Positions 184 through 26,633 are shown, numbered from the stretch's first letter. The stretch: 64,000 bases of DNA from a candidate division WOR-3 bacterium (GCA_965649225.1 CBFGJX010000001.1:41899-105898), one strand, 5' to 3'. The notes: a model not told the origin generated them from the sequence alone. Program-made: numbers and translations.

Positions 184-1692
184 CTAACCTCCAAGCACGC
201 GACTGGCATAACCGATCCCGTCGAGTAAGGACCGGGTAGCCGGGCCGACCAACCAGTCGATAACTGGCCTCACCCCAAACCCGAAAGCTACACTCAACAG
301 GACCAGGACGACCATCGCCGCTGCCATTGTTGCCGGTGATTCTCTGGCCAGTGTCGCATCGACTCCACCGCGCAGCAGAAATGATTTTGTTGCTACCCGT
401 CCGAGGTAGGCCAGTGTCAAAACCGACAGCACCGCTATCAACAAAGCCAAGGGATACATCCGAACCTGAACTGCACCCAGCAGAATCAGCAGTTTCGAAA
501 AAAAGCCAATAAACGGCGGCAACCCCACGAGCGACAATGCACTAAGAATATATGACCACGTTGTCACTGGCATGGAACGTTCCAAACCCCTGACCACATC
601 AATGTCACGACTGCCGGCCTGTAGTTCCACTGAACCCGAGGTCAAAAAGAGCGTGCCCTTGCTAAGGGCGTGGGCAACGATATGCAGCAATGCACCCGCA
701 ACGCCCCAAAAACTGCCGATACCCAAGCCAACCAGGATGTAGCCGACTTGGCTGACACTTGAGTAAGCCAACATACGCTTCAAATCAGTCTGGACGAGAG
801 CCAGCAGTCCGCCGACAACTATCGACAACAATCCAAGTCCCAGCAACACGTCAAAAAAGACCGGGGCAGCGGCACGGGAAAGCCCGAAAACATTGAACAT
901 AACTCTGACCATCGCATAAATGCCTAGAACCTTGATGAACACTCCCGAGAGCAAAGCCGACACTGGTGCTGGTGCAGATGGATGTGCATCAGGCAACCAG
1001 GCATGGAATGGCACTACCGCCATTTTCACCGCGAAGCCAGTCAAGAAGGTCGCAACCAGAAACCAGTAGAACGGTGTCTTGCCCGCCGCTGCCAAAACCA
1101 AGGATGCATCGGCCATATTCAGAGTGCCGGTCCGGGCATAGAGCAATGCAATGGCGAGAAGTATCGTCAAACCGCCAATCTCGCCGATGACCATATACTT
1201 GAAACCAGCCTCAAGCTCATCGAAGTCAGTCCCGAATGCAACCAGAGCATACGAAGCGACTGCTGCAATCTCGATGAAAACGAACAGATTGAAAATATCG
1301 CCGGATACCACAGCCCCGTTCAAACCAACCAGCACCAGCAAAAAGAGAACATAAAACTTCCAGCGTGCCGTATAGTGATCGAGGTAGCGTATCGAAAAAA
1401 GCAAAGCAGCAGAAGCGACGACGTTGAGAGCCAACAGCATCAACCCGGTCAGTCCGTCGAAGACAAGAACAATGCCCAGCGGTGGTGGCCACCCACCCAT
1501 TCGGTAGACCAGCGTCGGGGAACCGCAGGCCACAAGCGCTACGCCATAGCCAGCCATGCCAAGCAGGACACTGCTGGCGAGGTTGGCGAGGATGTCACCG
1601 AAACCGCGCCACAGGCGACTGAACAGAGGGACGGCAAATGCTGCTGCCAGCGGTACAGCAACAAAGAGCGGCAGAAAACTTGAATCCGTCAT
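184..1692 (-). CDS. mnhD: MrpD/MbhH-like antiporter-like proton-translocating subunit (502 aa)
   Basis: About 14 TM segments with motifs DIFNLFVFIEI, KMAVVPFHAWLPDAHPSAP, DLKRMLAYSS, HALSKG. Confidence 0.9.
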   Translation of the reverse strand: MTDSSFLPLFVAVPLAAAFAVPLFSRLWRGFGDILANLASSVLLGMAGYGVALVACGSPTLVYRMGGWPPPLGIVLVFDGLTGLMLLALNVVASAALLFSIRYLDHYTARWKFYVLFLLVLVGLNGAVVSGDIFNLFVFIEIAAVASYALVAFGTDFDELEAGFKYMVIGEIGGLTILLAIALLYARTGTLNMADASLVLAAAGKTPFYWFLVATFLTGFAVKMAVVPFHAWLPDAHPSAPAPVSALLSGVFIKVLGIYAMVRVMFNVFGLSRAAAPVFFDVLLGLGLLSIVVGGLLALVQTDLKRMLAYSSVSQVGYILVGLGIGSFWGVAGALLHIVAHALSKGTLFLTSGSVELQAGSRDIDVVRGLERSMPVTTWSYILSALSLVGLPPFIGFFSKLLILLGAVQVRMYPLALLIAVLSVLTLAYLGRVATKSFLLRGGVDATLARESPATMAAAMVVLVLLSVAFGFGVRPVIDWLVGPATRSLLDGIGYASRVLGG

Positions 1693-1698
1693 AGCCGG

Positions 1699-2037
1699 CT
1701 ATCCTCTGAGCCTCCTTATTTCAGCGATATCGAAGGTCTTGTAGCGCTCATAAATCCTCATGGCGAGTGCCAGCATCAGTGCGGTAGTGGCAAGACCGAT
1801 GACAATTGACGTCAACACCAGAGCCTGTGGCAGTGGATCGACAAACTTGGTTGCAGTACCAGCCTCGGTAATAATCGGCGGTAGCGCTCCGCGACGATAG
1901 CCGATCACCGCAAAGAGGACATTGATTGCGTACTCCATCAGCGTGAAGCCAATCACAATCCGAATCAGGTTGCCTTTCGCCACTACGGCATAGAGGCCAA
2001 CAACAAAAAGCAGAATGCAAGCCAGGATCGGTACCAC
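1699..2037 (-). CDS. mnhC: MrpC/MbhG-like subunit (NuoK family)
   Basis: 3 TM segments; NLIRIVIG and DPLPQALVLTSIVIG motifs. Confidence 0.9.
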   Translation of the reverse strand: MVPILACILLFVVGLYAVVAKGNLIRIVIGFTLMEYAINVLFAVIGYRRGALPPIITEAGTATKFVDPLPQALVLTSIVIGLATTALMLALAMRIYERYKTFDIAEIRRLRG

Positions 2038-2039
2038 GG

Positions 2040-2480
2040 CTACTCCTTCATCGCAAACCTTGAAGCACCAAGCGCCAGAAAAACCGCCAGCAGTCCCGCG
2101 CCGACCTTGATGCCGATGGCGATATTTGCCGGCATTATCAGTCCGCCGCTAAAGAGATGCAACGGCCGCCCGATGCCGAAGATCGGACCGTTCAAAAAGA
2201 AGTATCGCCCCCCAACATAACCAGCGAGAGCGAGCGCGAGAAAACCGATCCCCCCGAGACTTTCAAATACCGAGGAAAAAGCGTAGGAGCTGCGCTCGGC
2301 GCTCTCTACGGAGCCAAAAGCAAGTGAAAACAGGATGAACGATGCTGCCACCAGGACACCGCCGGCAAATCCCCCTCCCGGGCTGAGGTGCCCATGGACA
2401 ATTATGTAGCAGCCATAAAGGAAAAGCATCCCCCCAAGCAGTCGAGCAATCGTTTGAACAATGAGTGACATGCCACGCAT
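2040..2480 (-). CDS. mnhB: MrpB/MbhF-like subunit
   Basis: HGHLSPGGGFAGG motif. Start moved to ATG 2480, which has a GGAGG RBS. Confidence 0.88.
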   Translation of the reverse strand: MRGMSLIVQTIARLLGGMLFLYGCYIIVHGHLSPGGGFAGGVLVAASFILFSLAFGSVESAERSSYAFSSVFESLGGIGFLALALAGYVGGRYFFLNGPIFGIGRPLHLFSGGLIMPANIAIGIKVGAGLLAVFLALGASRFAMKE

Positions 2481-2481
2481 A

Positions 2482-3042
2482 CTATCCCTCCGAACCTGAA
2501 TGGCCCGTCGTCCGGCGACCGACACGGCGCACAATAACGAGCACGCCGATCACCGCCGCAAACAGAACCGTGGCTTCGCCCAAAGTATCGTAGCCGCGAA
2601 AATCAAGGATTATCGCCGCCACGAGGTTTGCCGCACCGGTTCGCTGCAAACCAGTGCGGACATATTCATCAGCGACACGCATTACCGGATTGCCCCAAAA
2701 AACAGCTATCTCCGGCAATGCCCGAAGAGCCACGCCAAGGAGCAGAATGCTGAAAACGGCAAAAGCCGTCAGAGGCAGGACCGGTATCGAAGCTGGCCCG
2801 CGCGCGACAGTGCTGTCCGTGCTGGTCGTCCGCAAAACCACCGCTGCAAAAAAGACTACCGTGAGCACTTCAACAACTATTTGAACGATCGCCAAATCTG
2901 GAGCCTGCAAAAGCAGGAATACAATAGCAACGCTGAAGCCGACTATCCCCAGCGCCACCGCCGCTGCCAGCAAATCCTTAACATGAATCGCAACCAGTGC
3001 CGCCCCAAGCATCACTGCCAGCAATATGTAAAGCTCTATCAT
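2482..3042 (-). CDS. DUF4040 + MnhB-N domain subunit (MbhD/MbhE-like)
   Basis: APDLAIVQIVVE and NLVAAIILDFRGYDTLGE motifs. ATG 3042 overlaps the upstream TGA (TGATG). Confidence 0.85.
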   Translation of the reverse strand: MIELYILLAVMLGAALVAIHVKDLLAAAVALGIVGFSVAIVFLLLQAPDLAIVQIVVEVLTVVFFAAVVLRTTSTDSTVARGPASIPVLPLTAFAVFSILLLGVALRALPEIAVFWGNPVMRVADEYVRTGLQRTGAANLVAAIILDFRGYDTLGEATVLFAAVIGVLVIVRRVGRRTTGHSGSEG

Positions 3043-4955
3043 CACCGTACCAGGATCAACATTACATAGAAAACGACCGCCCCTAGGAATACCCAAGCGA
3101 CGTACAGCGGCAGGTAACCGGTCTGCACTCTGGACAACAGCTTGCCGCACAGCTGTGCCAATCTGCCAAGAAATGCAAAGATGCTCTCGAGAATCTGACG
3201 ACTAAACTCGCGAGCCAGACTGCCAGCTGATCTCAAGGCAGCATCCAGCCAGTTGTAGAGATCAAAGGCCCCGATTCCGCCGAAATAAATCAACTCGCCC
3301 AGCAAGGGCAGGGTCTTAACCGGACCGTAGAAGGCAGTACCCGGTACCCGGCTCTCGTCCAGCTCGGCAATGCTCTCGCCGCCCACGTAAGCTTTACCGG
3401 CAACCGGTGCAGCGGCAGTGCCCGAAATGTACACCACGATTCCGATACCCAGGGAGAGCAACAACAGTAATGTCGCCGGAAGCGGCTGCCAGATCCCTAT
3501 CGGTTCAAAGTGACCTGACGCCGGAAGCGAGCGCTGAAGCAATGTCTCGAGCCCGAGCTGCTTCTGAAACACTCCAAAGGCAATGCAGGCCAGAGCAAGA
3601 ATGCCGGATGGAAGCCACATCGAAAAACCGGTCTCGCGCACGCCCTCCAGTCGTGACGGTCTCTGCCCCAAAAATACCGCATGGAGCAGCTTGACGAACG
3701 AAGCAAGGGTCAGCACGCTCCCGACCATTGCCGCTACCAGAAAAACCGGAAACAATCTCTGGCCTTCTCCACCTGAAATCACTATACCTTGATAAACCAT
3801 CCACTTGGACAAAAAGCCGTTCAATGGCGGTAGTCCAGCGATGGCCAGCGCTGCAACCAGAAACGAAACAAATGTGGCCGGCATCTGCCCCGCCAGACCT
3901 CCCAGCTCATCGACACGATCCGTCCCCGTTCGCTCCTGAACTGAACCGGCCGCAAGGAACAACCCGGTCTTGTAAAGCGTGTTGTTCAGCATGTGGAGCA
4001 GGCCACCGGCAAGCCCGACCGGGACGCCGCTGCCGATGCCAATAATCATGTACCCAACCTGGGAGACGGCATGAAACGCCAGCAACCGCATCACCCGCTT
4101 CTGGACCAGTGCCATAATCACGGCGGCCAGAACTGTCAGCGAACCAAGAGCCATCAGACCAGTGCGAACGGCCATGTTCGACGCAATATCAAAAACGTAG
4201 ACCGAAAGCCGAAAGAGCAGGTATATGCCGAGCAGTTTGTCCAACGTCGCCGGAATGAGTGCCATCACAGGAGCCGGAGAATTCTCTGAGGCTGCCGGAA
4301 TCCACGAATGGAAGGGCATTGCGCCGGCCTTGGCCAGCGCCCCAACTGCCACAAGAACGAATGCCACCACCATAACCGGCTCAGCAAGTCGCATAGCAAC
4401 CGGAGGGGCAATTTCAAGCCAGCCACCGCTCACTGCCAGCAGCACAATCCCCAGCAGCATCGCGAAATCAGAAAGACCAACCAGGACCAGCATTTTCGTT
4501 GCCGCGACATGGCGGTCTCCCCGCCCGACCAGCAACAACCCGTAAGACAGAGCGAGAAGACAGCCCCAGAAGAAAAGCAGTACCAGCAGGTTGGCCGCAA
4601 GCAGAACACCAAATGAACATGCAAGCGCCAGAAGAGCATACAGGTAGAATCCGCGTTCCCCCGGCGTACTGCGCACGGCGCGAACTGAGTAGAGAATTAT
4701 CAGAGCGCCCAGCCCAGCCGCAAAAAGCAAAAGCAAACCCGAGAGAGCATCAAGCCGGAATGCAACCTCGATGCCAGCCCGTTGCAAAACACTGAACACT
4801 ATAACATCACGACGAGACTGAACGAATAGACAAATGACATAGTAGAGCGGAACGACACTGCCGATGAAACTGAGTTCAGCCCGCAACTTGCCGATGATGT
4901 AGGCAAGCAATGCCGATACCACGGGAATCAACATGATCAGCAGAAACGGGTGCAT
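3042..4955 (-). CDS. MrpA/NuoL/HyfB-like antiporter-like subunit with C-terminal extension (637 aa)
   Basis: KAGAMPFHSWIP, RLLAFHAVSQ, LPPLNGFLSKW, and a C-terminal amphipathic stretch ending QTGYLPLY. TGATG-coupled start at 4955. Confidence 0.88.
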   Translation of the reverse strand: MHPFLLIMLIPVVSALLAYIIGKLRAELSFIGSVVPLYYVICLFVQSRRDVIVFSVLQRAGIEVAFRLDALSGLLLLFAAGLGALIILYSVRAVRSTPGERGFYLYALLALACSFGVLLAANLLVLLFFWGCLLALSYGLLLVGRGDRHVAATKMLVLVGLSDFAMLLGIVLLAVSGGWLEIAPPVAMRLAEPVMVVAFVLVAVGALAKAGAMPFHSWIPAASENSPAPVMALIPATLDKLLGIYLLFRLSVYVFDIASNMAVRTGLMALGSLTVLAAVIMALVQKRVMRLLAFHAVSQVGYMIIGIGSGVPVGLAGGLLHMLNNTLYKTGLFLAAGSVQERTGTDRVDELGGLAGQMPATFVSFLVAALAIAGLPPLNGFLSKWMVYQGIVISGGEGQRLFPVFLVAAMVGSVLTLASFVKLLHAVFLGQRPSRLEGVRETGFSMWLPSGILALACIAFGVFQKQLGLETLLQRSLPASGHFEPIGIWQPLPATLLLLLSLGIGIVVYISGTAAAPVAGKAYVGGESIAELDESRVPGTAFYGPVKTLPLLGELIYFGGIGAFDLYNWLDAALRSAGSLAREFSRQILESIFAFLGRLAQLCGKLLSRVQTGYLPLYVAWVFLGAVVFYVMLILVR

Positions 4956-6190
4956 CAGTGCCCCCCCACACCGAGCCCGACTTCCAGCCAGTTGACTGGC
5001 ACCCCATACAGAAATCCCCCGGCGAAAACGATCAACGCGATAACCGCGATCGCGATTATCGGCATGATCGGCGGGGATTGCCACTCAAAATCAGTCGGAC
5101 CGCCACCGAGAAAAACGGCAGTAAAGAGCCGGGTCATATAGACAAGGGTCAACAGCGCGGCAACAATTGCGCCAACGCCGAACACCAGACCACGGTCGAC
5201 GGCACCAATCAAAATCCCGACCTTGCCAAAGAAACCGAAAGAAGGAGGAATTCCAACCACCGTAAGAGTCAACAGGGCCGTCATCACCGCTAGAACGGGT
5301 GAATGCTGCGCCACGCGCCCCAGTTTGCTTATCTCATTCCTACCAGTGGCCTCCTCAACTAGACCAAATGCGTAAAACAATCCAGATTTTGCCAAAGCAT
5401 GAGTTGCCAGGTAAAGAAGTGCTCCGATCACGCCGTAGTACGAAACAGTCGCTAGTCCTAAAATCACCAGCCCCATTTGCCCCATCGTTGAGTACGCAAG
5501 CGTAGTCCGGATACTCCGAGAAGCCAGTGCCGCACCACCAGCGATAAGACTCGAAATCACCGCCAAAGCGGCAACAAAAGGCAAAAACCCGTCCGCTGCG
5601 CGCATCCCGGTGACGAAAAACTTGAAAAACATCACACCCCCGACGCTTTCGGCAACACCGGAAAGCAAAGCACAGATTGGTGCCGGTGCTGCACGATAGG
5701 CCCGAGGTAGCCAGACGTACAAAGGCAACACGGCCGACTTTGCAATTATCCCCGTAAGCAACAGAACCGCAGGCAACAACTCGATAGTTCGGCCGGCAAG
5801 ACCCGCAAAGCTCAGTGTCCGGTGCTGCTCGAAAACCAAAGCCAACCCAACCAGCATCACTGCCGAGGCGGCAAAATTCATGTACCAGGTCCAGGCCGCA
5901 GCATCGGCACTATCGTCCTGGCGATAAAACAACACCAAACGCCAGATAGCAAAACCGGACAGTTCCCAAAGGACGAAACCAACCAGGAGATTGCCGGCAT
6001 AAGCAATCCCGATGCCGCATGCTGTCAGGAGGACAACGAAAGCATAATATTCAGCAAGCTGACCCGCCGCAGCACGCACTCGGTAGATCGAATAGAGCAG
6101 CACCGTCAGCCCGACTACGCCAAATACAGTTCCCAAAAAGAACTCGACGGCACCGCCGCCAAAGTCAAACCAGTTGACGGGCAAAGTCAT
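4955..6190 (-). CDS. N-terminally shortened antiporter-like subunit (MrpD/NuoM family, 411 aa)
   Basis: VLWELSG, KSAVLPLYVWLPRAY, TLAYSTMGQ, HALAKS. ATGA overlap at 6187-6190. Confidence 0.85.
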   Translation of the reverse strand: MTLPVNWFDFGGGAVEFFLGTVFGVVGLTVLLYSIYRVRAAAGQLAEYYAFVVLLTACGIGIAYAGNLLVGFVLWELSGFAIWRLVLFYRQDDSADAAAWTWYMNFAASAVMLVGLALVFEQHRTLSFAGLAGRTIELLPAVLLLTGIIAKSAVLPLYVWLPRAYRAAPAPICALLSGVAESVGGVMFFKFFVTGMRAADGFLPFVAALAVISSLIAGGAALASRSIRTTLAYSTMGQMGLVILGLATVSYYGVIGALLYLATHALAKSGLFYAFGLVEEATGRNEISKLGRVAQHSPVLAVMTALLTLTVVGIPPSFGFFGKVGILIGAVDRGLVFGVGAIVAALLTLVYMTRLFTAVFLGGGPTDFEWQSPPIMPIIAIAVIALIVFAGGFLYGVPVNWLEVGLGVGGH

Positions 6191-7386
6191 CCCAGCCGCT
6201 CCCGGATCCGCTCGGTCTTCTGCCACGAAAGCCTGAGCAATTCCTGCCAACCGTATTTCAATTTGCCATCTTCGAATGCCGCCATCCGTTCAGTACAGCA
6301 ATAACAGGGGTCAACCGCCGCCAGCGTCAGTGCCGCGTCGGCAATACTGCCCCCCCGCACCGCAACTATGTTGGAAGCAATATTCATGTAGCTGGGTGCC
6401 CTGACCTTGTGCCGCAAAGGCCGGTTGGTGCCGTCGGAACGAATGTAGTGAAAGACCTCGCCCCGCGGTGCCTCCTGGCGTCCGATGCCTTCGCCTGCCG
6501 GTATCTCGTCGATTCGGGTCTCGATCGGTCCGTCGGGCAGATGTTCAAGAGCGTACCGAACGATTTTGACCGACTCGATGGTCTCCAACAGACGGACCTT
6601 CGCCTTGGCAAAAACATCTCCTTCAGCACAGCACACGACATTAAAAGGCATCTCGGCATAAGCGGCACAAGGTTCGTCTCGACGGAGGTCGATGTCGTAG
6701 CCGGAAGCACGGGCAGTGGGGCCGACAACCGAATAGGCCACTGCCTGCTCGCGTGTCAAAACGCCAACTCCCTCCAGCCGGGCCCGCAGGACCGGGTCAT
6801 CGAGGACAGCCTTTGTCAGCATAACCGTCTTCTTCTCCACCAGGTCCAACGCCTTCAGAATATCCGGTATGTACTCCGGTTTGATGTCGCGTCGGACTCC
6901 ACCCGGCTTGTTAGCCGCGTAGTGATTCCGGTTGCCGGTGATCATCTCGAAAATCTGCAACACCGGTTCGCGATACCGCCACGCCCACATCCAGACCGTA
7001 TTGTAGCCGATGAAATGCCCAGCCAGACCTACCCACAACAAATGCGAGTGTATTCGCTCCAATTCCTGAATGATGACCCGGATATACTGTGCGCGCGGCG
7101 GCGGTGTGATACCGGCGCAGTCTTCCACCGCCAGGACACAGGCGAATGGATGGGAATTAGAACAGATGCCACAAATCCTCTCAACGAGGAAAGGGATCTG
7201 GTCATAAGTCAACTCTGGCGAAATGAACTCGTGACCGCGATGGTTGTAGCCGAGATTGATTTCCATATCAACCACGGTCTCACCCTCGACAATCAGCTTG
7301 AAGAATTCCGGCTCTTCCTGCAGCGGATGATACGGGCCGATCGGAACTATCCGTCTATTCTTCGTGCTGCCTAGCTCTGTGCTCAT
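6187..7386 (-). CDS. Group 4 [NiFe]-hydrogenase large subunit (MbhL/NuoD family, 399 aa)
   Basis: PIGPYHP; L1 ERICGIC and L2 DPCYCCTER with all Ni-binding Cys; EAPRGE. GGAG RBS before ATG 7386. Confidence 0.92.
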   Translation of the reverse strand: MSTELGSTKNRRIVPIGPYHPLQEEPEFFKLIVEGETVVDMEINLGYNHRGHEFISPELTYDQIPFLVERICGICSNSHPFACVLAVEDCAGITPPPRAQYIRVIIQELERIHSHLLWVGLAGHFIGYNTVWMWAWRYREPVLQIFEMITGNRNHYAANKPGGVRRDIKPEYIPDILKALDLVEKKTVMLTKAVLDDPVLRARLEGVGVLTREQAVAYSVVGPTARASGYDIDLRRDEPCAAYAEMPFNVVCCAEGDVFAKAKVRLLETIESVKIVRYALEHLPDGPIETRIDEIPAGEGIGRQEAPRGEVFHYIRSDGTNRPLRHKVRAPSYMNIASNIVAVRGGSIADAALTLAAVDPCYCCTERMAAFEDGKLKYGWQELLRLSWQKTERIRERLG

Positions 7387-7807
7387 AGTCTCTCCGCAGG
7401 GGCAGCCGGGAGGAATCCCAGTCGGTGTCCGAAGTGAGCAACGGCACCGGATTGGGATGACCGGCAAACTGGACGCCAAACATCTCGGCAATCTCGCGTT
7501 CAATCCATTCTGCAGCCGGAAACCAGACCGCCTGAGACTCCAAGACGGGATCGTCTTTCGGAACCATGACTTTCAGGGTATACATTACGCCTTGACTGTC
7601 GTCGGAAAAGTGGTACAGCACCTCATAGCCTTCGCGAGTGTCGATTCCCGTACAAATCGACAGCCGACAACCCAGCTCAAGATGCAACAGCCGACAGGCA
7701 GCAGTAAGGCTCTCGCGCCCGATACGAAGATAGTATCGCCGCGGGTTGTAGACCTGAACTTCAGCGTCGGGGAAACGCTCCCGGAAAGCCTGTTCGATTG
7801 CTGTCAT
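7355..7807 (-). CDS. NuoC/MbhK-like subunit
   Basis: AEWIEREIAEMFGVQFAGHP and PLRRD motifs. ATGA overlap at 7804-7807. Confidence 0.88.
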   Translation of the reverse strand: MTAIEQAFRERFPDAEVQVYNPRRYYLRIGRESLTAACRLLHLELGCRLSICTGIDTREGYEVLYHFSDDSQGVMYTLKVMVPKDDPVLESQAVWFPAAEWIEREIAEMFGVQFAGHPNPVPLLTSDTDWDSSRLPLRRDYEHRARQHEE

Positions 7808-20750: not shown

Positions 20751-22187
20751 GTGTGTGGCGTAATCGGTATTACGAATCGCCGACGCCCTGCTGGCGCTGA
20801 GCTGGTCGAAGGTTTGCTGGCGCTACAGCACCGCGGACAGGACTCAGCGGGAGTGCTGACTTCCGATGAAACTATCCATCTCAAGAAGGGCAATGGCACC
20901 GTCAGCCGGGTATTCAACGATCGCAATCTCGCCCGACTGACTGGCTGCCAGGGCATTGGTCACGTCCGCTATCCGACTATCGGCCCTGGATCGGCTGAAG
21001 ACGCCCAGCCATTCTACGTGAACCATCCGTACGGCATCGCGATGGTGCACAACGGCAACGTCACCAACTACCTGTCGCTGCGCCGTGAACTTACCAGCCG
21101 CTACCGCCGTCAGCTCACCAGTTGTTCCGACCTCGAACCAATCCTCAATATCTTTGCCCAGCGTCTTGAGTCGTCGAAACGTCGCTTTGGCGCTGATGCG
21201 GTGTTCGCTGCCGTCGACGAGGTCTTCACCCGGGTCCGGGGCTCCTACTCGGTCATTTCTCTAATCCAGAGTCACGGCTTGCTTGCTTTCCGCGACCCGT
21301 GGGGGATAAAACCGCTGGTATTCGGCCGTCGTGGCCACGATTATGCTTTCAGTTCGGAAAGTGTCGCGTTCGATCGCCTCGGTTTCCAATTGATTCGTGA
21401 CGTCAACCCGGGCGAAGCGATACTGATTGATGCCGCGGGACGTGTCCATTGCCGCCAGCTTCGCCCGGCACACCCTCGAACCTGCATTTTCGAATACGTC
21501 TACTTCGCCCGACCCGACTCGATTATCGACGGCATCGAAGTATACGAAGCACGTCTGCGGCTGGGTGAACGGCTCGCCCGTGAAATACAGAAGCACCAAC
21601 CCGAAGTCGATGTCGTCATCGCCGTTCCCGACACAGCCCGCACCGCCGCCGGCTCACTGGCCGAATCGCTCGGACTGCCCCTGCGGGAAGGGCTGATCAA
21701 GAACCGCTATATTGCGCGTACCTTCATCATGCACGGCCAAGACCGCCGGGCACTGTCCGTCCGCCAGAAACTGAATACCGTCCGGTCCCAGATTGCGGGT
21801 CGCCGGATACTCTTGGTTGACGACTCGATTGTCCGCGGCACCACTTCTCGGGAAATAGTCCAGATGGTACGCGACGCGGGTGCCCGCTTTGTCGCGCTGG
21901 CGGTCACTGCCCCTCCTCTTCGCTTCCCCTGTGTCTATGGCATCGACATGATGACTCGAGGCGAGTTCATCGCCAAAGACCGCTCTCTCGCCGCAATCCG
22001 TCGCGCGATTTCCGCCGATGCGTTGTTTTATCAGAGTTATCAAGGACTGGTGGCTGCGGTTGCCGGCAACCACCCTGATCGCCGATTCTGCACCGCCTGC
22101 TTCAACGGCAGTTACCCGACTCCAATTACCCGTCGCGAGCTTCTTCAGATGGAATCGGAACGAACCCGCTGGACTGCTGGCCCGTGA
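20751..22187 (+). CDS. purF: Amidophosphoribosyltransferase
   Basis: N-terminal Cys nucleophile, QHRGQ, GHVRY, HNGN, VDDSIVRGTTS, PC.YGID, C.AC. Confidence 0.96.
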   Translation: MCGVIGITNRRRPAGAELVEGLLALQHRGQDSAGVLTSDETIHLKKGNGTVSRVFNDRNLARLTGCQGIGHVRYPTIGPGSAEDAQPFYVNHPYGIAMVHNGNVTNYLSLRRELTSRYRRQLTSCSDLEPILNIFAQRLESSKRRFGADAVFAAVDEVFTRVRGSYSVISLIQSHGLLAFRDPWGIKPLVFGRRGHDYAFSSESVAFDRLGFQLIRDVNPGEAILIDAAGRVHCRQLRPAHPRTCIFEYVYFARPDSIIDGIEVYEARLRLGERLAREIQKHQPEVDVVIAVPDTARTAAGSLAESLGLPLREGLIKNRYIARTFIMHGQDRRALSVRQKLNTVRSQIAGRRILLVDDSIVRGTTSREIVQMVRDAGARFVALAVTAPPLRFPCVYGIDMMTRGEFIAKDRSLAAIRRAISADALFYQSYQGLVAAVAGNHPDRRFCTACFNGSYPTPITRRELLQMESERTRWTAGP

Positions 22188-23266
22188 CCACTGCAGCGAC
22201 CCTGATTCTTGCCCTCTTTGGCACAATAACTCTCCAAGCCCATGACCGGCCCGGTGACGGCGGTGGTGCCTTAATCGTCAGCTGGTCGGTGACAGGTGAT
22301 TCTCTTCCCGAAGGCTGGCACATCCTGCGCCAGGCGGAAGGCGATACCTGGCAGCAGATTGTATTCCTCGGCCCGGTGGCACGAAGCTACCTCGACGAGG
22401 ACGTCTCCGACACCATCCGGTACCGGTATGCTATTGCCGGCTCACACGATCCAAGTCACATCCTGGCCGGACCGACCAACTGGACGAGGAGTTCACCGCA
22501 ATGGTTCGACCCACGCACACTCGGTGCGCTCGTCGGCACCATCATCGCCGCATTCCTGATTCTGCTGTATCTGCGCCGCGCCCGGCGTGGAACAAAACTA
22601 TTTGTCCGCCGCATCGCCGGCCTGGACGCAGTCGAAGAAGCGCTCGGTCGAGCCACCGAGATGGGGCGTCCGACCCTCTTCGTGCCTGGACTGTCAACAG
22701 TTTCCGATGTTGCCACCATCGCCGCGCTGAACATACTGGGCGAGGTCGCCAAGCGAACAGCACAATTTGGAACACCGCTGATCGTTCCAGTGGCCGACCC
22801 GGTGGTATATACAGTTGCGCTGGAGACCGCCAAACAGAGCTACACGGCTGCCGGTCGACCCGATGGGTTTGATCCGGGTTCAGTCTATTTCGTAACTGAC
22901 GAGCAATTCGCATTTGCGGCAGCAATCGACGGCATCATGGTGCGCGAAAAACCTGCCACCAACTTTCTGATCGGCATGTTCTGGGCTGAATCGCTGATCA
23001 TTGCCGAGACCGGCGCCCAGACCGGCGCTATCCAGATCGCCGGCACTGATGCTGTCAACCAGCTACCTTTCTTCATCACTGCCTGCGACTACACCCTGCT
23101 TGGCGAGGAAGTCTACGCAGCGTCGGCCTATCTTTCCCGTGAGCCCCTGCTGCTCGGCGCCATCGCGGGGCAGGACCGTACCAAGTTGCTGATACTGGCG
23201 GTGCTCATACTTCTCAGCCTGCTCAGTATCATCACCGGCCTTGAGCCTGCCCTGATCCTCGGTTGA
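22184..23266 (+). CDS. FN3 + DUF6754-type membrane protein (paralogue 1)
   Basis: Signal peptide, FN3-like domain (HDRPGDGGGALIVSW...Y.Y.I), TM, IRRIAGLDAVEEA-type domain, C-terminal TM. Confidence 0.8.
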   Translation: MTTAATLILALFGTITLQAHDRPGDGGGALIVSWSVTGDSLPEGWHILRQAEGDTWQQIVFLGPVARSYLDEDVSDTIRYRYAIAGSHDPSHILAGPTNWTRSSPQWFDPRTLGALVGTIIAAFLILLYLRRARRGTKLFVRRIAGLDAVEEALGRATEMGRPTLFVPGLSTVSDVATIAALNILGEVAKRTAQFGTPLIVPVADPVVYTVALETAKQSYTAAGRPDGFDPGSVYFVTDEQFAFAAAIDGIMVREKPATNFLIGMFWAESLIIAETGAQTGAIQIAGTDAVNQLPFFITACDYTLLGEEVYAASAYLSREPLLLGAIAGQDRTKLLILAVLILLSLLSIITGLEPALILG

Positions 23267-23341
23267 CCGCGCTATTTGACTGGGCGACACCCGGGAATAT
23301 ACTGCCCATCGTTTCATCAATCCGGCTACGGAGGACATAGA

Positions 23342-24427
23342 ATGTTGTTCAGTCTAGCTACCGCTGTCATGTTCTCTCTTACACCGCCGGGTGCGGTCAC
23401 TGCCAAAGACCGCCCCAATGACGGCGGCAGAGCGATAATCGTCACTTGGAACCGGGCTTCCGGTCCGGTAACCGGCTACCGTATCCTGCGCCAGCCCGAA
23501 AATTCACTCGGCTGGGACACCGTCGGTTTTGCCGGTCCCCGAATCGGCCGCTACGTCGACGAAGGTGTGCCGGACAATATTCCCCACCGCTACAAGGTTG
23601 TTGCATTCGCTGATTCGCTGACCGTGGAATCTGAGCCATCGGCCTTGGCCAGTAGCCGCCCGCAATGGTTCAATACCGGCTACATTCCGGCGCTGGTTCT
23701 CGTCTTCATCTTCAGTTTCCTTGTGCTCTGGTTCCTGCAGACTGCAAAACGAGGCAGGAAACTGTTCATACGCCGCATCGCCGGGCTGGACGCAGTTGAA
23801 GAGGCACTCGGCAGAGCAACAGAGATGGGCCGGGCAATTCTCTACGTGCCCGGACTGTCGTCAATCGACGATGTCGCAACGATCGCATCGATCAACATCC
23901 TTGGCGAAGTTGCCAAGAAAACCGCCCGGTTCGGCACTCCGCTGATCGTTCCCAATCGTGACCCGATCGTCTATACCGTTGCGCGCGAGGTGGTCAAAGA
24001 ATCCTACACCGCCGAAGGCCGCCCCGACGCCTTTAACCAGGACATGGTATTCTATGTCACTGATTCGCAGTTTGCGTACGCTGCGGCGGTCGACGGCATC
24101 ATGACCCGGGAAAAACCAGCGACCAACTTCCTCGTCGGCATGTTCTGGGCCGAATCGCTGATACTCGCCGAAACCGGTGCTCTGTCCGGCGCAGTCCAGA
24201 TTGCCGGCACCGACGCCATCTCCCAGTTGCCGTTTTTCATTACTGCCTGCGACTACACCCTTATTGGCGAAGAACTTTATGCCGCCTCGGCCTATCTCTC
24301 GCGTGAACCGATGCTGCTGGGAGCAGTTAAAGGTCAGGACTATTCCAAAGCCATAATCCTCGGTCTGATCCTGCTCGGTACACTGCTTGCCACTGTGCTG
24401 AGGATACCGGTCATGCGTATTCTTTAG
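23342..24427 (+). CDS. FN3 + DUF6754-type membrane protein (paralogue 2)
   Basis: Same architecture as paralogue 1. GGAGG RBS before ATG 23342. Confidence 0.8.
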   Translation: MLFSLATAVMFSLTPPGAVTAKDRPNDGGRAIIVTWNRASGPVTGYRILRQPENSLGWDTVGFAGPRIGRYVDEGVPDNIPHRYKVVAFADSLTVESEPSALASSRPQWFNTGYIPALVLVFIFSFLVLWFLQTAKRGRKLFIRRIAGLDAVEEALGRATEMGRAILYVPGLSSIDDVATIASINILGEVAKKTARFGTPLIVPNRDPIVYTVAREVVKESYTAEGRPDAFNQDMVFYVTDSQFAYAAAVDGIMTREKPATNFLVGMFWAESLILAETGALSGAVQIAGTDAISQLPFFITACDYTLIGEELYAASAYLSREPMLLGAVKGQDYSKAIILGLILLGTLLATVLRIPVMRIL

Positions 24428-24436
24428 GAGGACAAA

Positions 24437-25105
24437 TTGAAGCGCAGGTTGCCGCTCTTGATAGTTCTTCTCTCTGGCATCTTCGCTGCCTTGGCCTTCG
24501 TGATACCCCATCCGACAGTGCGGAGTGTCGACGAAGTGTTCCGTAACGACGTATTGCGCATCATCACCGCCTTCAGTCTTGTGCTTGGGATTGGTTCAAT
24601 TCTCCGTCATCACCTCATCAAAATAAAGCGCAAAGCCGAGCACTGGCCATTTTCCTGGGTGACGGTGATTTCACTTTTCGTCTCCGCAATCATCGGGTTG
24701 CTGGGTGGTATCGACCCCAACCGTCCGGGAATTCTCCCCACCAGTATCGGCGGTTTCAGTTTTCACATCCAGAATCTCTTTACCAACATCATGGTGCCGC
24801 TGGGCGCCACCATGTTTGCCCTGCTCGCCTTCTTTATGGCCTCTGCCGCCTACCGGGCTTTTCGGGCGCGGAATTTCGAAGCCACCCTGCTGCTGATAGC
24901 GGCTTTCGTCCTGATGATCGGAGCCGTCCCACTTACCCGGGTTATCGCCCGGCCCTTGCCTGCCTTCGCCGAATGGATTCTCGCTGTACCCAACACCGCC
25001 GCTAAACGCGGTATCGGCTTTGGAGTCAGTCTGGGCATCTTCGCGACATCGCTCAAGATACTCTTAGGAATAGAGCGCGGCTGGCTTGGTGGAGGCGGCT
25101 CATGA
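24437..25105 (+). CDS. Polytopic membrane protein of unknown function (222 aa)
   Basis: AGGAGG RBS; about 6 hydrophobic segments; SAAYRAFRARN and ILLGIER motifs. Confidence 0.8.
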   Translation: MKRRLPLLIVLLSGIFAALAFVIPHPTVRSVDEVFRNDVLRIITAFSLVLGIGSILRHHLIKIKRKAEHWPFSWVTVISLFVSAIIGLLGGIDPNRPGILPTSIGGFSFHIQNLFTNIMVPLGATMFALLAFFMASAAYRAFRARNFEATLLLIAAFVLMIGAVPLTRVIARPLPAFAEWILAVPNTAAKRGIGFGVSLGIFATSLKILLGIERGWLGGGGS

Positions 25106-26007
25106 ACCAATCCCCCAGCCCTGCATCTGGATTCTGGAATCGACTCCAGCGTATCGACCGCCGTTGGATATATGCGGTCATCTGGCTGGTGGTGATGTTA
25201 CCGCTCATCTTCCCTTTCAAAATCAAACCCGAAGCCATGCCGCCGGTTTCCCGGCTCTTCTCCTACATCGACACCATGCCCGACGATAAAGCGCTGGTCA
25301 TCTCTGTCGACTACACGCCTGACACACAGGCCGAGCTTCACCCGATGACCATCGCCCTTCTGCGACACGCCTTTGCCAGCGGGCGGCGAGTCGGCATGCT
25401 GGCCACATCTGTTTACGGACTTGGGCTCGGCGAGGACGCCCTGCGGCAGGTCTCAGCCGAGTTCAACGCGAAAGCAACAACTCACGACGACTCGATAATC
25501 AGCGGTGAGGATTACGTCTTCTGGGGATGGTCAACACCGTTCGTCACAGTGATGCTCGGCATGGGAGAACGTATCACCAACGTATTCCCCGTCGACTACT
25601 ATGGCGTGAAAACCGAATCGCTGCCTATCACCGGTTTCATCAAGAACTACAATGACATCGGCATAGTGGTATCGATTGCCGGCTCCTCGGTACCCCTGTC
25701 GTGGGTTGCCTACGCCCAGACACAGTTTGGCGTGCGGATTGGCTGCGGGACTACCGCCGTGTCTGCTGCTGATTACTACACCTATCTGAACTCAGGTCAG
25801 TTCACTGGCATGCTCGCCGGCATGCGCGGCGCCGCCGAGTATGAACAGCTCCTGGAAGACAAAATGGCGATGGCCGGAGCTAACCTTTCGTTCCGCCGCA
25901 AGGCCACCGAGGCAATGTCGTCACAAACCGCAGCTCACCTGGCAATCATCATCTTCATAATTGTCGGTAACATTGGTTACTTTCTTTCCCGCCGGAGGCA
26001 GAAGTGA
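25102..26007 (+). CDS. Divergent DUF6754-like protein with two TM anchors (301 aa)
   Basis: ATGA-coupled. C-terminal half aligns by eye with the paralogues (GT.AV...; G....AA.Y; Q...L.I). Confidence 0.75.
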   Translation: MNQSPSPASGFWNRLQRIDRRWIYAVIWLVVMLPLIFPFKIKPEAMPPVSRLFSYIDTMPDDKALVISVDYTPDTQAELHPMTIALLRHAFASGRRVGMLATSVYGLGLGEDALRQVSAEFNAKATTHDDSIISGEDYVFWGWSTPFVTVMLGMGERITNVFPVDYYGVKTESLPITGFIKNYNDIGIVVSIAGSSVPLSWVAYAQTQFGVRIGCGTTAVSAADYYTYLNSGQFTGMLAGMRGAAEYEQLLEDKMAMAGANLSFRRKATEAMSSQTAAHLAIIIFIIVGNIGYFLSRRRQK

Positions 26008-26633
26008 ATATTTCAACTGACCCCTGGGTCTGGATTGCCGCCATCCTGACCCTCGCCGTTTTCTCTTTTCTGTATCGGGAAAACCCGTTCTACCGTTTCG
26101 CAGAACATCTGTTCGTCGGTGTGTCAAACGGCTACGCAATCACATTTTACTGGCACCGGATACTGGTGCCCTACCTGTTTACTCCACTCAGCCGCGGCGA
26201 GAAACTCTGGCTGATACCAATCGCTATTGTCGGAGCTTTCTACTTTGCCCGTTTTATCCCACGAGTATCATGGCTGGTCCGATTTCCGATCGCCATCGCG
26301 CTCGGCTACAGTGCCGGGGCCTCGATTCCGCGCAGCATTCACGCCAACATCCTCGAACAGATCAAAGCGACAATTGTCACCAGGGCCACGTTCGCAAACT
26401 GGCAACAAGGACTGTGGGCAGTGATAATCCTAATCGGCGTCGTCTGCACCATTTCCTACTTCTTCTTCTCCTCAGAACGAAAAGGGATTCTGAAACCCGC
26501 CAGCTATCTGGGTATCGTCTTCATCATGGTCGGATTTGGAGCATCCTTTGGCTACACTGTGATGGCACGCATTTCGCTCTTCATTGGCCGCCTGCAGTTT
26601 CTACTTGGTGACTGGCTGGGAATCGTGCGCTAG
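26004..26633 (+). CDS. Polytopic membrane protein of unknown function (209 aa)
   Basis: GTGA-coupled; about 6 TM segments; apparent internal repeat. Confidence 0.8.
   Translation: MNISTDPWVWIAAILTLAVFSFLYRENPFYRFAEHLFVGVSNGYAITFYWHRILVPYLFTPLSRGEKLWLIPIAIVGAFYFARFIPRVSWLVRFPIAIALGYSAGASIPRSIHANILEQIKATIVTRATFANWQQGLWAVIILIGVVCTISYFFFSSERKGILKPASYLGIVFIMVGFGASFGYTVMARISLFIGRLQFLLGDWLGIVR

Follow-up and report, generated by a model that had tools for sequence, protein, structure and literature searches.

A conserved DUF6754 gene cassette predicted to encode an uncharacterised four-subunit membrane complex in candidate division WOR-3 and related phyla

The five-gene locus at positions 22184-26633 of the window, the 64,000-nucleotide stretch of a candidate division WOR-3 genome that was analysed, encodes a predicted, uncharacterised four-subunit complex of the cytoplasmic membrane (subunits A, B, C and D) and a second A-type gene. 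In subunit A, an extremely conserved alpha/beta domain, predicted to be cytoplasmic, is clamped by two poorly conserved transmembrane segments (TMs), and the periplasmic part is a variable FN3/Ig stalk. In subunit C, two TM anchors hold a different alpha/beta domain, predicted on the periplasmic face. The cassette is conserved as one unit in WOR-3 and in candidate phyla related to it within the FCB group. A preliminary description of this DNA had proposed a five-gene system; the conserved unit held up, but it comprises four genes, with the first gene (G1) as an extra.

All five open reading frames run in the same direction, on the plus strand: G1 (22184..23266, 360 aa), an extra DUF6754 paralogue; G2 (23342..24427, 361 aa), the canonical DUF6754 subunit A; G3 (24437..25105, 222 aa), subunit B; G4 (25102..26007, 301 aa), subunit C; and G5 (26004..26633, 209 aa), subunit D. 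Tight spacing and strong ribosome-binding sites had been reported for these genes. We found 4-nt overlaps at G3/G4 and G4/G5 and GGAGG sites upstream of G2, G3, G4 and G5, but no Shine-Dalgarno sequence for G1, whose start codon, GTG, shares bases with the stop codon of purF (GTGA). The most probable start of G2 is ATG 23342, which gives the 361-aa length of a database protein of 100% identity and has a GGAGG 7 nt upstream; TTG 23276 is probably the wrong start. Between G1 and G2, a promoter-like element (23276..23303, plus strand) consists of TTGACT, a 16-nt spacer and TATACT, a match to consensus only, at 10 of 12 positions. The window also holds purF, priA and tamB, a housekeeping neighbourhood.

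We compared the gene order across genomes and found that DUF6754-G3-G4-G5 (A-B-C-D) was kept in 79 of the 79 loci examined, in WOR-3, Stahlbacteria, TA06, Eisenbacteria, Fermentibacteria, CSSED10-310 and others. The order was intact even in distant cassettes with a G4 identity of 26-30%. In a collection with one genome per species, the cassette matched at least 500 stretches, and the G4 family comprises about 2,570 clusters at 50% identity. Tandem repetition of the whole cassette was frequent, with arrays in L031, L036, L039, L043, L045 and L072; tandem arrays of cassettes are common among transport systems. No further neighbour was conserved across phyla beside A-B-C-D, and no conserved kinase, GGDEF, HTH or ATPase gene lay next to the cassette. 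A sigma-70/ECF-like gene pair was found downstream in 11 WOR-3 loci, on the opposite strand and lineage-specific. Co-conservation, on which the preliminary description had made its reading depend, and translational coupling fit the hetero-oligomeric complex that it proposed. That the genes are mere neighbours with no joint function is extremely improbable, given an order that is invariant even at very low sequence identity, overlapping gene starts and stops, and duplication of the whole unit in tandem.

Subunit A was identified by Pfam PF20539 (DUF6754; gathering threshold 27 bits), which matched G1 with 362 bits (E 1e-108) and G2 with 397 bits (E 4e-119) and is carried by all A homologues listed. 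The layout described earlier for G1 and G2, a signal peptide, FN3, TM, basic cluster, alpha/beta domain and TM, was found in both, as was the DRPxDGG motif said to be common to them. In G1, the signal peptide spans aa 1-19, FN3 about aa 20-105, TM1 aa 112-130 and TM2 aa 335-353, with the DUF6754 domain, predicted to be cytoplasmic, between the two TMs. In G2, the signal peptide is followed by FN3 (aa 17-96), TM1 (aa 112-136), a flavodoxin/Rossmann-like domain predicted to be cytoplasmic (aa 137-322) and TM2 (about aa 337-355). Identity between the two proteins is 61% overall, falling to 34% over FN3 and rising to 78% over the DUF6754 domain. G1 is a lineage-specific extra A copy, confined to the nearest relatives L001 and L002; doubled first genes were also seen in L004 and L068.

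The most conserved segment of the whole system lies in the cytoplasmic part of A, at 24152..24337 on the plus strand (G2 aa 271-332: AESLILAETGA...QIAGTD...QLPFFITACDYTLIGEELYAASAYLSREP). These 62 residues have a mean pairwise identity of 82% across phyla, compared with 37% in FN3 and 33-36% in the TMs, the least conserved part. AlphaFold2 modelled the G2 monomer with low confidence at aa 279-309. The cytoplasmic domain is rich in invariant Asp, Glu, Cys, Arg, Lys and Gln, and in the family alignment neither Asp nor Glu was invariant within the TMs. PF20539 is catalogued only as a domain of unknown function, in line with the earlier remark that DUF6754 has no assigned function. The literature searched does not mention DUF6754, and the cassette, its partners and its topology are described neither in the PF20539 entry nor in the papers found.

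The N-terminal domain of A is a true FN3: the family profile matches titin FN3 (E 2e-20), and Foldseek aligned its model to FN3 structures with probability 1.0 and a target-normalised TM-score of 0.6-0.7, while the single-sequence Pfam score was below threshold (16.5 vs 25 bits). Across phyla, an alignment of 38 sequences shows D, P, D, G and W of the DRPxDGG region to be invariant. We place this domain in the periplasm because the organism is a diderm, TamB being encoded in the window. The ectodomain varies, with one to about five FN3 domains, an Ig-like domain or an OmpA insert. Some ectodomains have an Ala/Pro-rich linker and a domain that is Ig-like by eye, and in L024 an OmpA-family peptidoglycan-binding domain (PF00691, E 3e-16) is inserted in FN3, the only such case among about 86 A subunits examined. 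G1 and G2 had been regarded as alternative FN3 receptor subunits. They are indeed two FN3 paralogues, but FN3 is a variable periplasmic stalk and not an obvious receptor for an external ligand.

G4 has the layout attributed to it, with a basic N-tail carrying an invariant DRRW motif, TM1 (aa 23-41), an alpha/beta domain (aa 42-266), TM2 (aa 277-295) with conserved Gln, His and Asn, and a basic C-tail. Its most conserved segment (25702..25866, plus strand, aa 201-255) follows the pattern WxxYAQTQFG..GCGxTAVSAADxYxYLNSGQFTGMLAGMxGAAEYE, and AlphaFold2 confidence falls below 50 at aa 216-237. Foldseek of the G4 fold against PDB gave a best E of 0.026 with TM-scores of at most 0.25. The polytopic subunits, described before as proteins of about six TMs, have six (G3, N-in/C-in) and about seven (G5, probably N-out). 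G3 keeps the motifs FFMASAAYRAFRAR, VPNTAxKRGI and GIERxWLGG, and G5 keeps AEHLFVGxxNGY, SWLVRxPI, GFGAsFGYTVMAR and GRxQFLLGxWLG; the cross-phylum identity of B and D is about 60%. G3, G4 and G5 had no match in Pfam, NCBIfam, PADLOC or PDB.

We then assessed membrane topology from the distribution of Lys and Arg. Family-wide K+R counts on the two sides of TM1 of A were 0.59 vs 5.06, and those of C were 3.45 vs 1.73 for TM1 and 1.65 vs 3.90 for TM2. Basic clusters lie after TM1 of G1/G2 and on the terminal side of both G4 TMs, again family-wide, and B shows an alternating K+R pattern across its family. One relative of C carries a lipoprotein signal peptide and a PD40 propeller fusion and lacks TMs, and in an otherwise normal cassette the C subunit contains an inserted repeat that faintly matches CARDB. 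The charge counts, the lipoprotein/PD40 fusion and the faint CARDB-like insertion indicate that the alpha/beta domains of A and C most likely face opposite sides of the membrane, in agreement with the preliminary description.

That description had also aligned the C-terminal halves of G1/G2 and G4 by eye and taken the domains as homologous. Smith-Waterman comparison placed this alignment at chance level (z = 1.3), with 108 of 1000 shuffles scoring equally high, and BLASTP of G1/G2 against G4 gave no significant match (E >= 2.8). With shallow and deep profiles (184 and 203 sequences, Neff up to 5.8) of whole proteins, domains and tails, hhalign returned probabilities of 0.2-1.3% for A against C and for B against D. 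No relation was detectable between G3 and G5 by BLASTP (E >= 2), hhalign or the shuffle test; the shuffle tests overall gave z = 1.3, -0.5 and 1.0. Homology of G4 and DUF6754, which the preliminary description had itself made answerable to profile comparison, finds no support from hhalign, BLASTP or shuffling, and the proposed inverted-topology pseudo-symmetry is therefore unsupported. The AlphaFold2 models of A and C both show beta-alpha repeats held between two TMs and are alike in the order of secondary-structure elements.

The domains of DUF6754 and G4, and perhaps G3 and G5 as well, could still be inverted homologues diverged within a pseudo-symmetric (A+B)/(C+D) transporter, which we consider quite unlikely. 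This reading draws on the opposite faces of the A and C domains, on the N-in G3 and probably N-out G5, on a gene order of bitopic, polytopic, bitopic, polytopic, and on the element order common to both models (TM, alpha-beta-alpha-beta-alpha-beta-alpha-beta-alpha, a low-confidence ultra-conserved Gly/Ala-rich segment, helix, TM). However, the hhalign, BLASTP and shuffle results above stand against it, and convergence repeatedly yields beta-alpha repeat folds. A version in which (A+B) and (C+D) arose by an ancient duplication with opposite insertion and form a new class of split translocase, a Gly/Ala/Thr-rich loop of each bitopic subunit entering the membrane core from its own side, is improbable. 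If true, the cassette would represent an inverted-repeat transporter whose halves have stayed on separate genes, their sequences diverged past detection but their architecture and secondary-structure order preserved.

We tentatively propose, at low confidence and with function read from architecture alone, that the complex is a capped translocase. B and D would form a membrane core whose two faces are capped by A and C, and the near-invariant Gly/Ala/Ser/Thr-rich segments beside the final TM in each of A and C, which the AlphaFold2 monomers do not place, would dock onto or into this core. The complex would transport something through the inner membrane: the cytoplasmic A domain would catalyse, energise or gate this step, and the periplasmic C domain would receive the substrate or hand it on. 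The A ectodomain may tether the machine toward the cell wall or act as a spacer. As substrate, an envelope precursor is slightly the likelier candidate, the alternative being a solute or an ion. G1 and G2 may be interchangeable A subunits with a common cytoplasmic module (78%) and differing periplasmic FN3 domains (34%). The proposal is favoured by the constraint pattern of A (82% at aa 271-332 of the cytoplasmic part vs 33-37% in FN3 and TMs) and by the Gln, His and Asn retained in TM2 of C. Against it, searches of Pfam, NCBIfam, PADLOC and PDB profiles and of PDB by Foldseek showed no similarity to transporter, translocase or enzyme families, and the conservation and housekeeping neighbourhood equally suit a structural or regulatory role. 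Nor is an energy source apparent, as the cassette has neither Walker motifs nor a conserved acidic TM residue. A cell-wall link is favoured by the OmpA insert of L024, the ectodomains of about five FN3 domains and the diderm envelope; the confinement of that insert to one of about 86 A subunits speaks against a tether.

Known systems resemble the cassette in part. RnfA/RnfE, NqrD/NqrE and dual-topology small transporters likewise have partners of comparable architecture on opposite faces, and they recall G3 and G5, two polytopic subunits of about 200 aa with opposite predicted N-terminal orientation. Partners in those systems are recognisably homologous, whereas the cassette partners have no detectable homology and no Rnf/Nqr Pfam match; G3 and G5 gave no Rnf-Nqr HMM match at E <= 1, nor did any of the 31 and 33 family members scanned. 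MlaFEDB, LptB2FGC, FtsEX and LolCDE, envelope ABC machines whose periplasmic subunit is bitopic, share a polytopic core, an anchored periplasmic domain, a cytoplasmic alpha/beta module and a possible cell-wall link. An ABC-type envelope transporter was rejected, as the cassette has no ABC ATPase gene, Walker motifs or family match. G4 resembles Wzz/PCP proteins in its N-in, TM, periplasmic alpha/beta domain with long helices, TM, C-in layout; a polysaccharide co-polymerase was rejected for want of a Wzz/GNVR Pfam match or a PDB structural match. PADLOC gave no anti-phage defence hit for the five proteins at E <= 0.1.

Other functions were weighed against the translocase. A signalling or sensing complex, in which periplasmic FN3 and G4 sense the state of the envelope or a ligand and DUF6754 is the output, is unlikely. 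It would explain why the periplasmic modules vary around a constant cytoplasmic one and why G1 and G2 differ mainly in FN3, and the sigma-70/ECF-like pair of the 11 WOR-3 loci would suit it; but that pair is a lineage-specific neighbour encoded on the opposite strand, nothing recognisable as an output domain or partner accompanies the cassette across phyla, and two polytopic subunits at about 60% cross-phylum identity are unexpected in a simple sensor. We also think it unlikely that the complex is a membrane biosynthetic or modifying enzyme, acting for instance on an envelope lipid or glycan, with DUF6754 as the catalytic part and no transport as such. The extreme conservation of the cytoplasmic domain, its abundance of invariant residues (Asp, Glu, Cys, Arg, Lys and Gln) and the neighbours purF, priA and tamB point that way, yet no enzyme family or solved fold was matched, and the periplasmic cap and stalk would be left unexplained.

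The OmpA-family domain in the periplasmic part of the L024 subunit A recalls MotB, Pal/TolR and OmpA-like proteins, and with the long FN3 stalks of some lineages and the several paralogous cassettes per genome, as in ExbBD and MotAB sets, it would suit a peptidoglycan-anchored ion-driven motor/stator or envelope tether like MotAB, TolQR-Pal or ExbBD. This is improbable: the insert is a single case in a single lineage, no MotA/ExbB/TolQ or ExbD/TolR/MotB match was found in Pfam or NCBIfam, and the A TMs are only 33-36% conserved, without an invariant acidic residue. The capped translocase is the reading that we tentatively retain.

Three of the four subunits matched no described family, and the fourth is only a DUF. 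An identity of 82% across phyla is the level usual in core bioenergetic or secretion machinery. Because it occurs widely, contains this segment and has three subunits without a family match, the cassette is a strong candidate for a housekeeping membrane machine, hitherto undescribed, shared by a large block of uncultivated bacteria of the FCB group. Its interest lies in this conservation and the absence of known relatives, since opposite-face homology is unsupported. Solving the function could uncover a new transport or envelope-biogenesis mechanism and give a role to several thousand "hypothetical" proteins.

G3 was also compared with DUF3623/PuhE (threshold 27 bits). The G3 of the window gave no hit, the orthologue in L015 scored 27.4 bits, and three other orthologues scored 18-23 bits, below the threshold; the alignments of these orthologues place TM3-5 on profile positions 125-251.

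The preliminary description had placed five genes at 22184-26633, and all five were present as same-direction ORFs on the plus strand: G1 (22184-23266, 360 aa), G2 (361 aa), G3 (24437-25105, 222 aa), G4 (25102-26007, 301 aa) and G5 (26004-26633, 209 aa). The frame of G2 is open from 23276, and its start is likely ATG 23342, because the resulting 361 aa equal the length of a 100%-identical database protein and GGAGG sits 7 nt upstream. GGAGG was also found upstream of G3, G4 and G5, and 4-nt overlaps join G3 to G4 and G4 to G5. The strong ribosome-binding sites described for the whole array thus hold for G2 to G5 but not for G1, which has no Shine-Dalgarno sequence before it. G1 starts with a GTG that shares bases with the stop codon of the gene directly upstream, purF (20751-22187), in a GTGA at 22184-22187. 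The two genes may be translationally coupled, G1 may be co-transcribed with purine biosynthesis, or the arrangement may reflect synteny and nothing more. The spacer between G1 and G2 contains a sigma-70-like element at 23276-23303 (TTGACT, 16-nt spacer, TATACT; 10/12 matches), suggesting that G2-G5 may be transcribed separately from purF-G1 by this putative promoter.

We then assessed whether the genes are inherited together. Scanning a single genome for each species, we found over 560 stretches that encode relatives of G4. We analyzed the best 79 of these, all from metagenome-assembled genomes, with named sources in WOR-3, Stahlbacteria, TA06, Eisenbacteria, Fermentibacteria, Latescibacterota, Gemmatimonadota and CSSED10-310. 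The order DUF6754, G3, G4, G5 was found in every one of these 79 loci that was long enough to show it, which bears out the proposed co-conservation. The order was kept even around the very distant G4 relatives P0361 (26% identity, L084), P0314 (L086), P0323 (L089) and P0246 (L083). At the family level, clustering at 50% left 2,570 representatives of G4, which has no Pfam model, and the DUF6754 homologue search gave at least 8,000 candidates.

A doubled DUF6754 gene, as in the window, occurred only in L001, L002, L004 and L068 among the loci analyzed, indicating a four-gene system in which G1 is a lineage-specific extra copy of the DUF6754 subunit (subunit A). The membrane gene set proposed earlier as a five-gene system is therefore real, but its unit is four genes. 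The idea of a hetero-oligomeric membrane system has good support and can be made more specific, as a four-gene unit spanning several phyla. The entire unit was repeated in tandem, in two to three copies, at L031 (4244-12754), L036, L039, L043, L045 and L072, and cassette paralogues shared 58-82% identity. On the WOR-3 chromosome CP070686.1, a further cassette copy lies about 22 kb away (L068). When all flanking ORFs were clustered, no other neighbor proved to be conserved across phyla, the upstream purF being a WOR-3-only synteny. Around a dozen WOR-3 loci (L008, L016, L018, L020, L021, L023-L027 and L057) have that gene directly 5' of the cassette, a position from which it is absent in other phyla. 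At L089, from a distant lineage, three genes (2042-5509) precede the cassette, encoding a PF13941 'MutL' ATPase-like protein, a 373 aa protein with weak, sub-threshold biotinyl/RnfC-barrel matches and a 158 aa protein without a match; CstA lies downstream.

G1 and G2 matched DUF6754 (PF20539; Pfam E values of 1e-108 and 4e-119) and were 61% identical overall. The FN3 domain at their N-terminus is real: the family profile matched titin FN3 (E = 2e-20), and the AlphaFold2 model matched FN3 structures with probability 1.0. The D-x-P-x-D-G-G...W motif, noticed earlier in the two paralogues, was invariant across a 38-sequence cross-phylum alignment. In the G2 AlphaFold2 model (mean pLDDT 80), FN3 (aa 17-96) and a TM helix (112-136) are followed by a five-unit beta-alpha domain, a poorly modelled stretch (279-309), a helix (305-320) and a terminal TM helix (323-353). 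The best 50 Foldseek matches of this model were mostly to FN3 and were thus uninformative about the DUF6754 domain. The periplasmic N-terminus of subunit A was modular, one FN3 being the usual form. By eye, the subunit carries about five tandem FN3 domains in the second cassette of L035 (4972-7119; one FN3 family match in Pfam, 37.6 bits), two FN3-like domains in L089 (5526-7244), and an Ala/Pro-rich linker with an Ig-like domain in L084 (577-1968). In L024 (3839-5293), the FN3 is interrupted by an OmpA-family peptidoglycan-binding domain (PF00691, E = 3e-16).

Apart from DUF6754, none of the five products matched a family in Pfam, NCBIfam or PADLOC. Pfam searches with diverse family members (31 of G3, 33 of G5, 47 of G4) likewise found no consistent family, except a borderline DUF3623 match for G3. 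This similarity lies between TM3-5 of G3 and the C-terminal half of DUF3623/PuhE: the L015 orthologue (4277-4942), at 27.4 bits, just passed the 27-bit cut-off, and three other WOR-3 orthologues stayed below it at 18-23 bits in the same register. As PuhE has, to our knowledge, no defined function, we treat this signal as no more than a lead. PDB sequence profiles matched nothing but FN3, and Foldseek of the G4 model against the PDB returned only generic Rossmann-like noise (E ≥ 0.026, TM-score ≤ 0.25). A literature search found no paper naming DUF6754 or PF20539, and the cassette is without a detectable relative among characterized systems.

G3 and G5 had each been described as having about six TM helices; G3 does have six hydrophobic segments, but G5 has about seven. 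Neither showed internal repeats (best hhalign probability 4.5%), and BLASTP, hhalign and shuffle tests gave no sign of homology between G3 and G5. We also rejected the G5 motif GFGASFG as rhomboid-like, its Ser being replaced by Ala in many orthologues. In the CSSED10-310 orthologues of G3 (L059 5051-5980; L077 5054-5983; L078 5051-5977), the loop between TM3 and TM4 contains about 90 additional aa, with weak YHS-domain matches in two members. The G4 AlphaFold2 model (mean pLDDT 73) contains a TM helix (aa 20-36), a beta-alpha domain, a poorly modelled stretch (216-237), a helix (232-257) and a long helix (267-300) that includes the second TM. Large insertions occur at two sites in G4 relatives, comprising faint CARDB-like repeats, HEAT repeats (P0335) and charged or coiled segments; in P0307 the G4 domain itself occurs twice in tandem.

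To assess topology, we averaged positive-inside K+R counts over whole families. Across TM1 of the DUF6754 proteins, K+R rose from 0.59 on the FN3 side to 5.06 next to the domain, indicating that the latter is cytoplasmic. For G4, the counts were 3.45 versus 1.73 at TM1 and 1.65 versus 3.90 at TM2, which places both termini in the cytoplasm and the domain in the periplasm. Two natural variants of G4 independently support the periplasmic assignment. P0390, found outside any cassette, has a lipoprotein signal peptide and a PD40 beta-propeller fused straight to the G4 alpha/beta domain and lacks both TMs. In P0246, which lies within a normal cassette (L083), the domain is interrupted by some 550 aa of repeats that match CARDB no more than faintly. 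On the basis of the counts and these variants, the DUF6754 and G4 globular domains are predicted, as proposed earlier, most likely to face opposite sides of the membrane. G3 showed the clean alternation of an N-in, C-in protein with six TMs; G5 was compatible with N-out and about seven TMs, less clearly than G3.

Constraint, measured as mean pairwise identity per region, was unevenly distributed. In subunit A it was 37% for FN3, 33-36% for the two TM helices, 67% for cytoplasmic aa 136-270 and 82% for aa 271-332. Invariant residues of its cytoplasmic domain include Arg144, Glu161, Cys303, Asp304 and Glu310/311. The G1-G2 pair shows the same contrast, sharing 34% of residues in FN3 and 78% in the cytoplasmic domain. 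In G4 the bulk of the periplasmic domain reached 50% and aa 201-255 reached 61%, and Gln275, His279 and Asn290 were retained in the second TM; G3 and G5 stood at 57% and 60%. In both bitopic subunits, the stretch left unplaced by the AlphaFold2 monomer was the most conserved one, as would be expected of segments that fold against partner subunits.

The headline reading of the preliminary description, that the two domains are homologous, was not supported by sequence comparison, although its observation of the locus was otherwise largely right. The C-terminal halves of G1/G2 and G4, previously aligned by eye, could not be aligned by BLASTP (E ≥ 2.8). Smith-Waterman alignment of the tails gave z = 1.3 against 1000 shuffles, 108 of which scored as well, and the domains alone gave z = -0.5, compared with z = 138 for the G1/G2 positive control. 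Profile comparison by hhalign was run in local, global, low-mact, domain-only and tail-only modes on shallow and deep profiles (24-27 sequences; about 80 cross-phylum; 184 versus 203 sequences, with Neff 5.8 for G4; domain-only and tail-only slices). The probabilities were 0.1-1.3%, and TM helices were the sole aligned stretches.

These results show four inner-membrane proteins whose genes are inherited together and translationally coupled, with one alpha/beta domain predicted per membrane face, two polytopic subunits and a variable periplasmic stalk. The four proteins very probably form a complex. As a tentative proposal, which as a whole falls somewhat short of an even chance, this complex would be a capped translocase. 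G3 and G5 would form the membrane core, capped by the DUF6754 domain in the cytoplasm and by the G4 domain in the periplasm, with a TM at both ends holding each cap down. The near-invariant Gly/Ala/Ser/Thr-rich segment of each cap would contact or enter the core, and the FN3/Ig/OmpA stalk would set the position of the machine relative to peptidoglycan. The translocase might move an envelope precursor, a solute or an ion, and the cytoplasmic domain would be the catalytic, energizing or gating module.

The same gene set, in which no ATPase, kinase or DNA-binding partner was found, might instead be a sensor complex or a membrane-bound enzyme complex, each of which we consider unlikely. That the caps are diverged inverted homologues has a low probability, given that BLASTP, hhalign and shuffle tests were all negative, but the idea is interesting and is kept alive by the similar order of secondary-structure elements in the two AlphaFold2 models. 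Least credible to us is a peptidoglycan-anchored motor or tether.

The genes flanking the cassette in the window are housekeeping genes, encoding a patatin-domain protein, a pseudouridine synthase, a radical-SAM protein, PurF, a deaminase, PriA and TamB, the last of which indicates a diderm host envelope. The names of homologues assign the window to candidate division WOR-3. No Rfam element (riboswitch or regulatory RNA) was detected upstream of the cassettes in the window or in six loci. GC skew was negative in all 2-kb bins of 1-64000 (cumulative -3.5), with no switch point within. The minus strand of 184-7503 carries several large, very hydrophobic ORFs resembling, by eye, NuoL/M/N- or Mrp-type antiporter-like subunits, and the region is a possible Mrp, Mbx or complex-I-like cluster. 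Its strong AT skew (+0.3 to +0.4) is plausibly tied to the composition of these ORFs.
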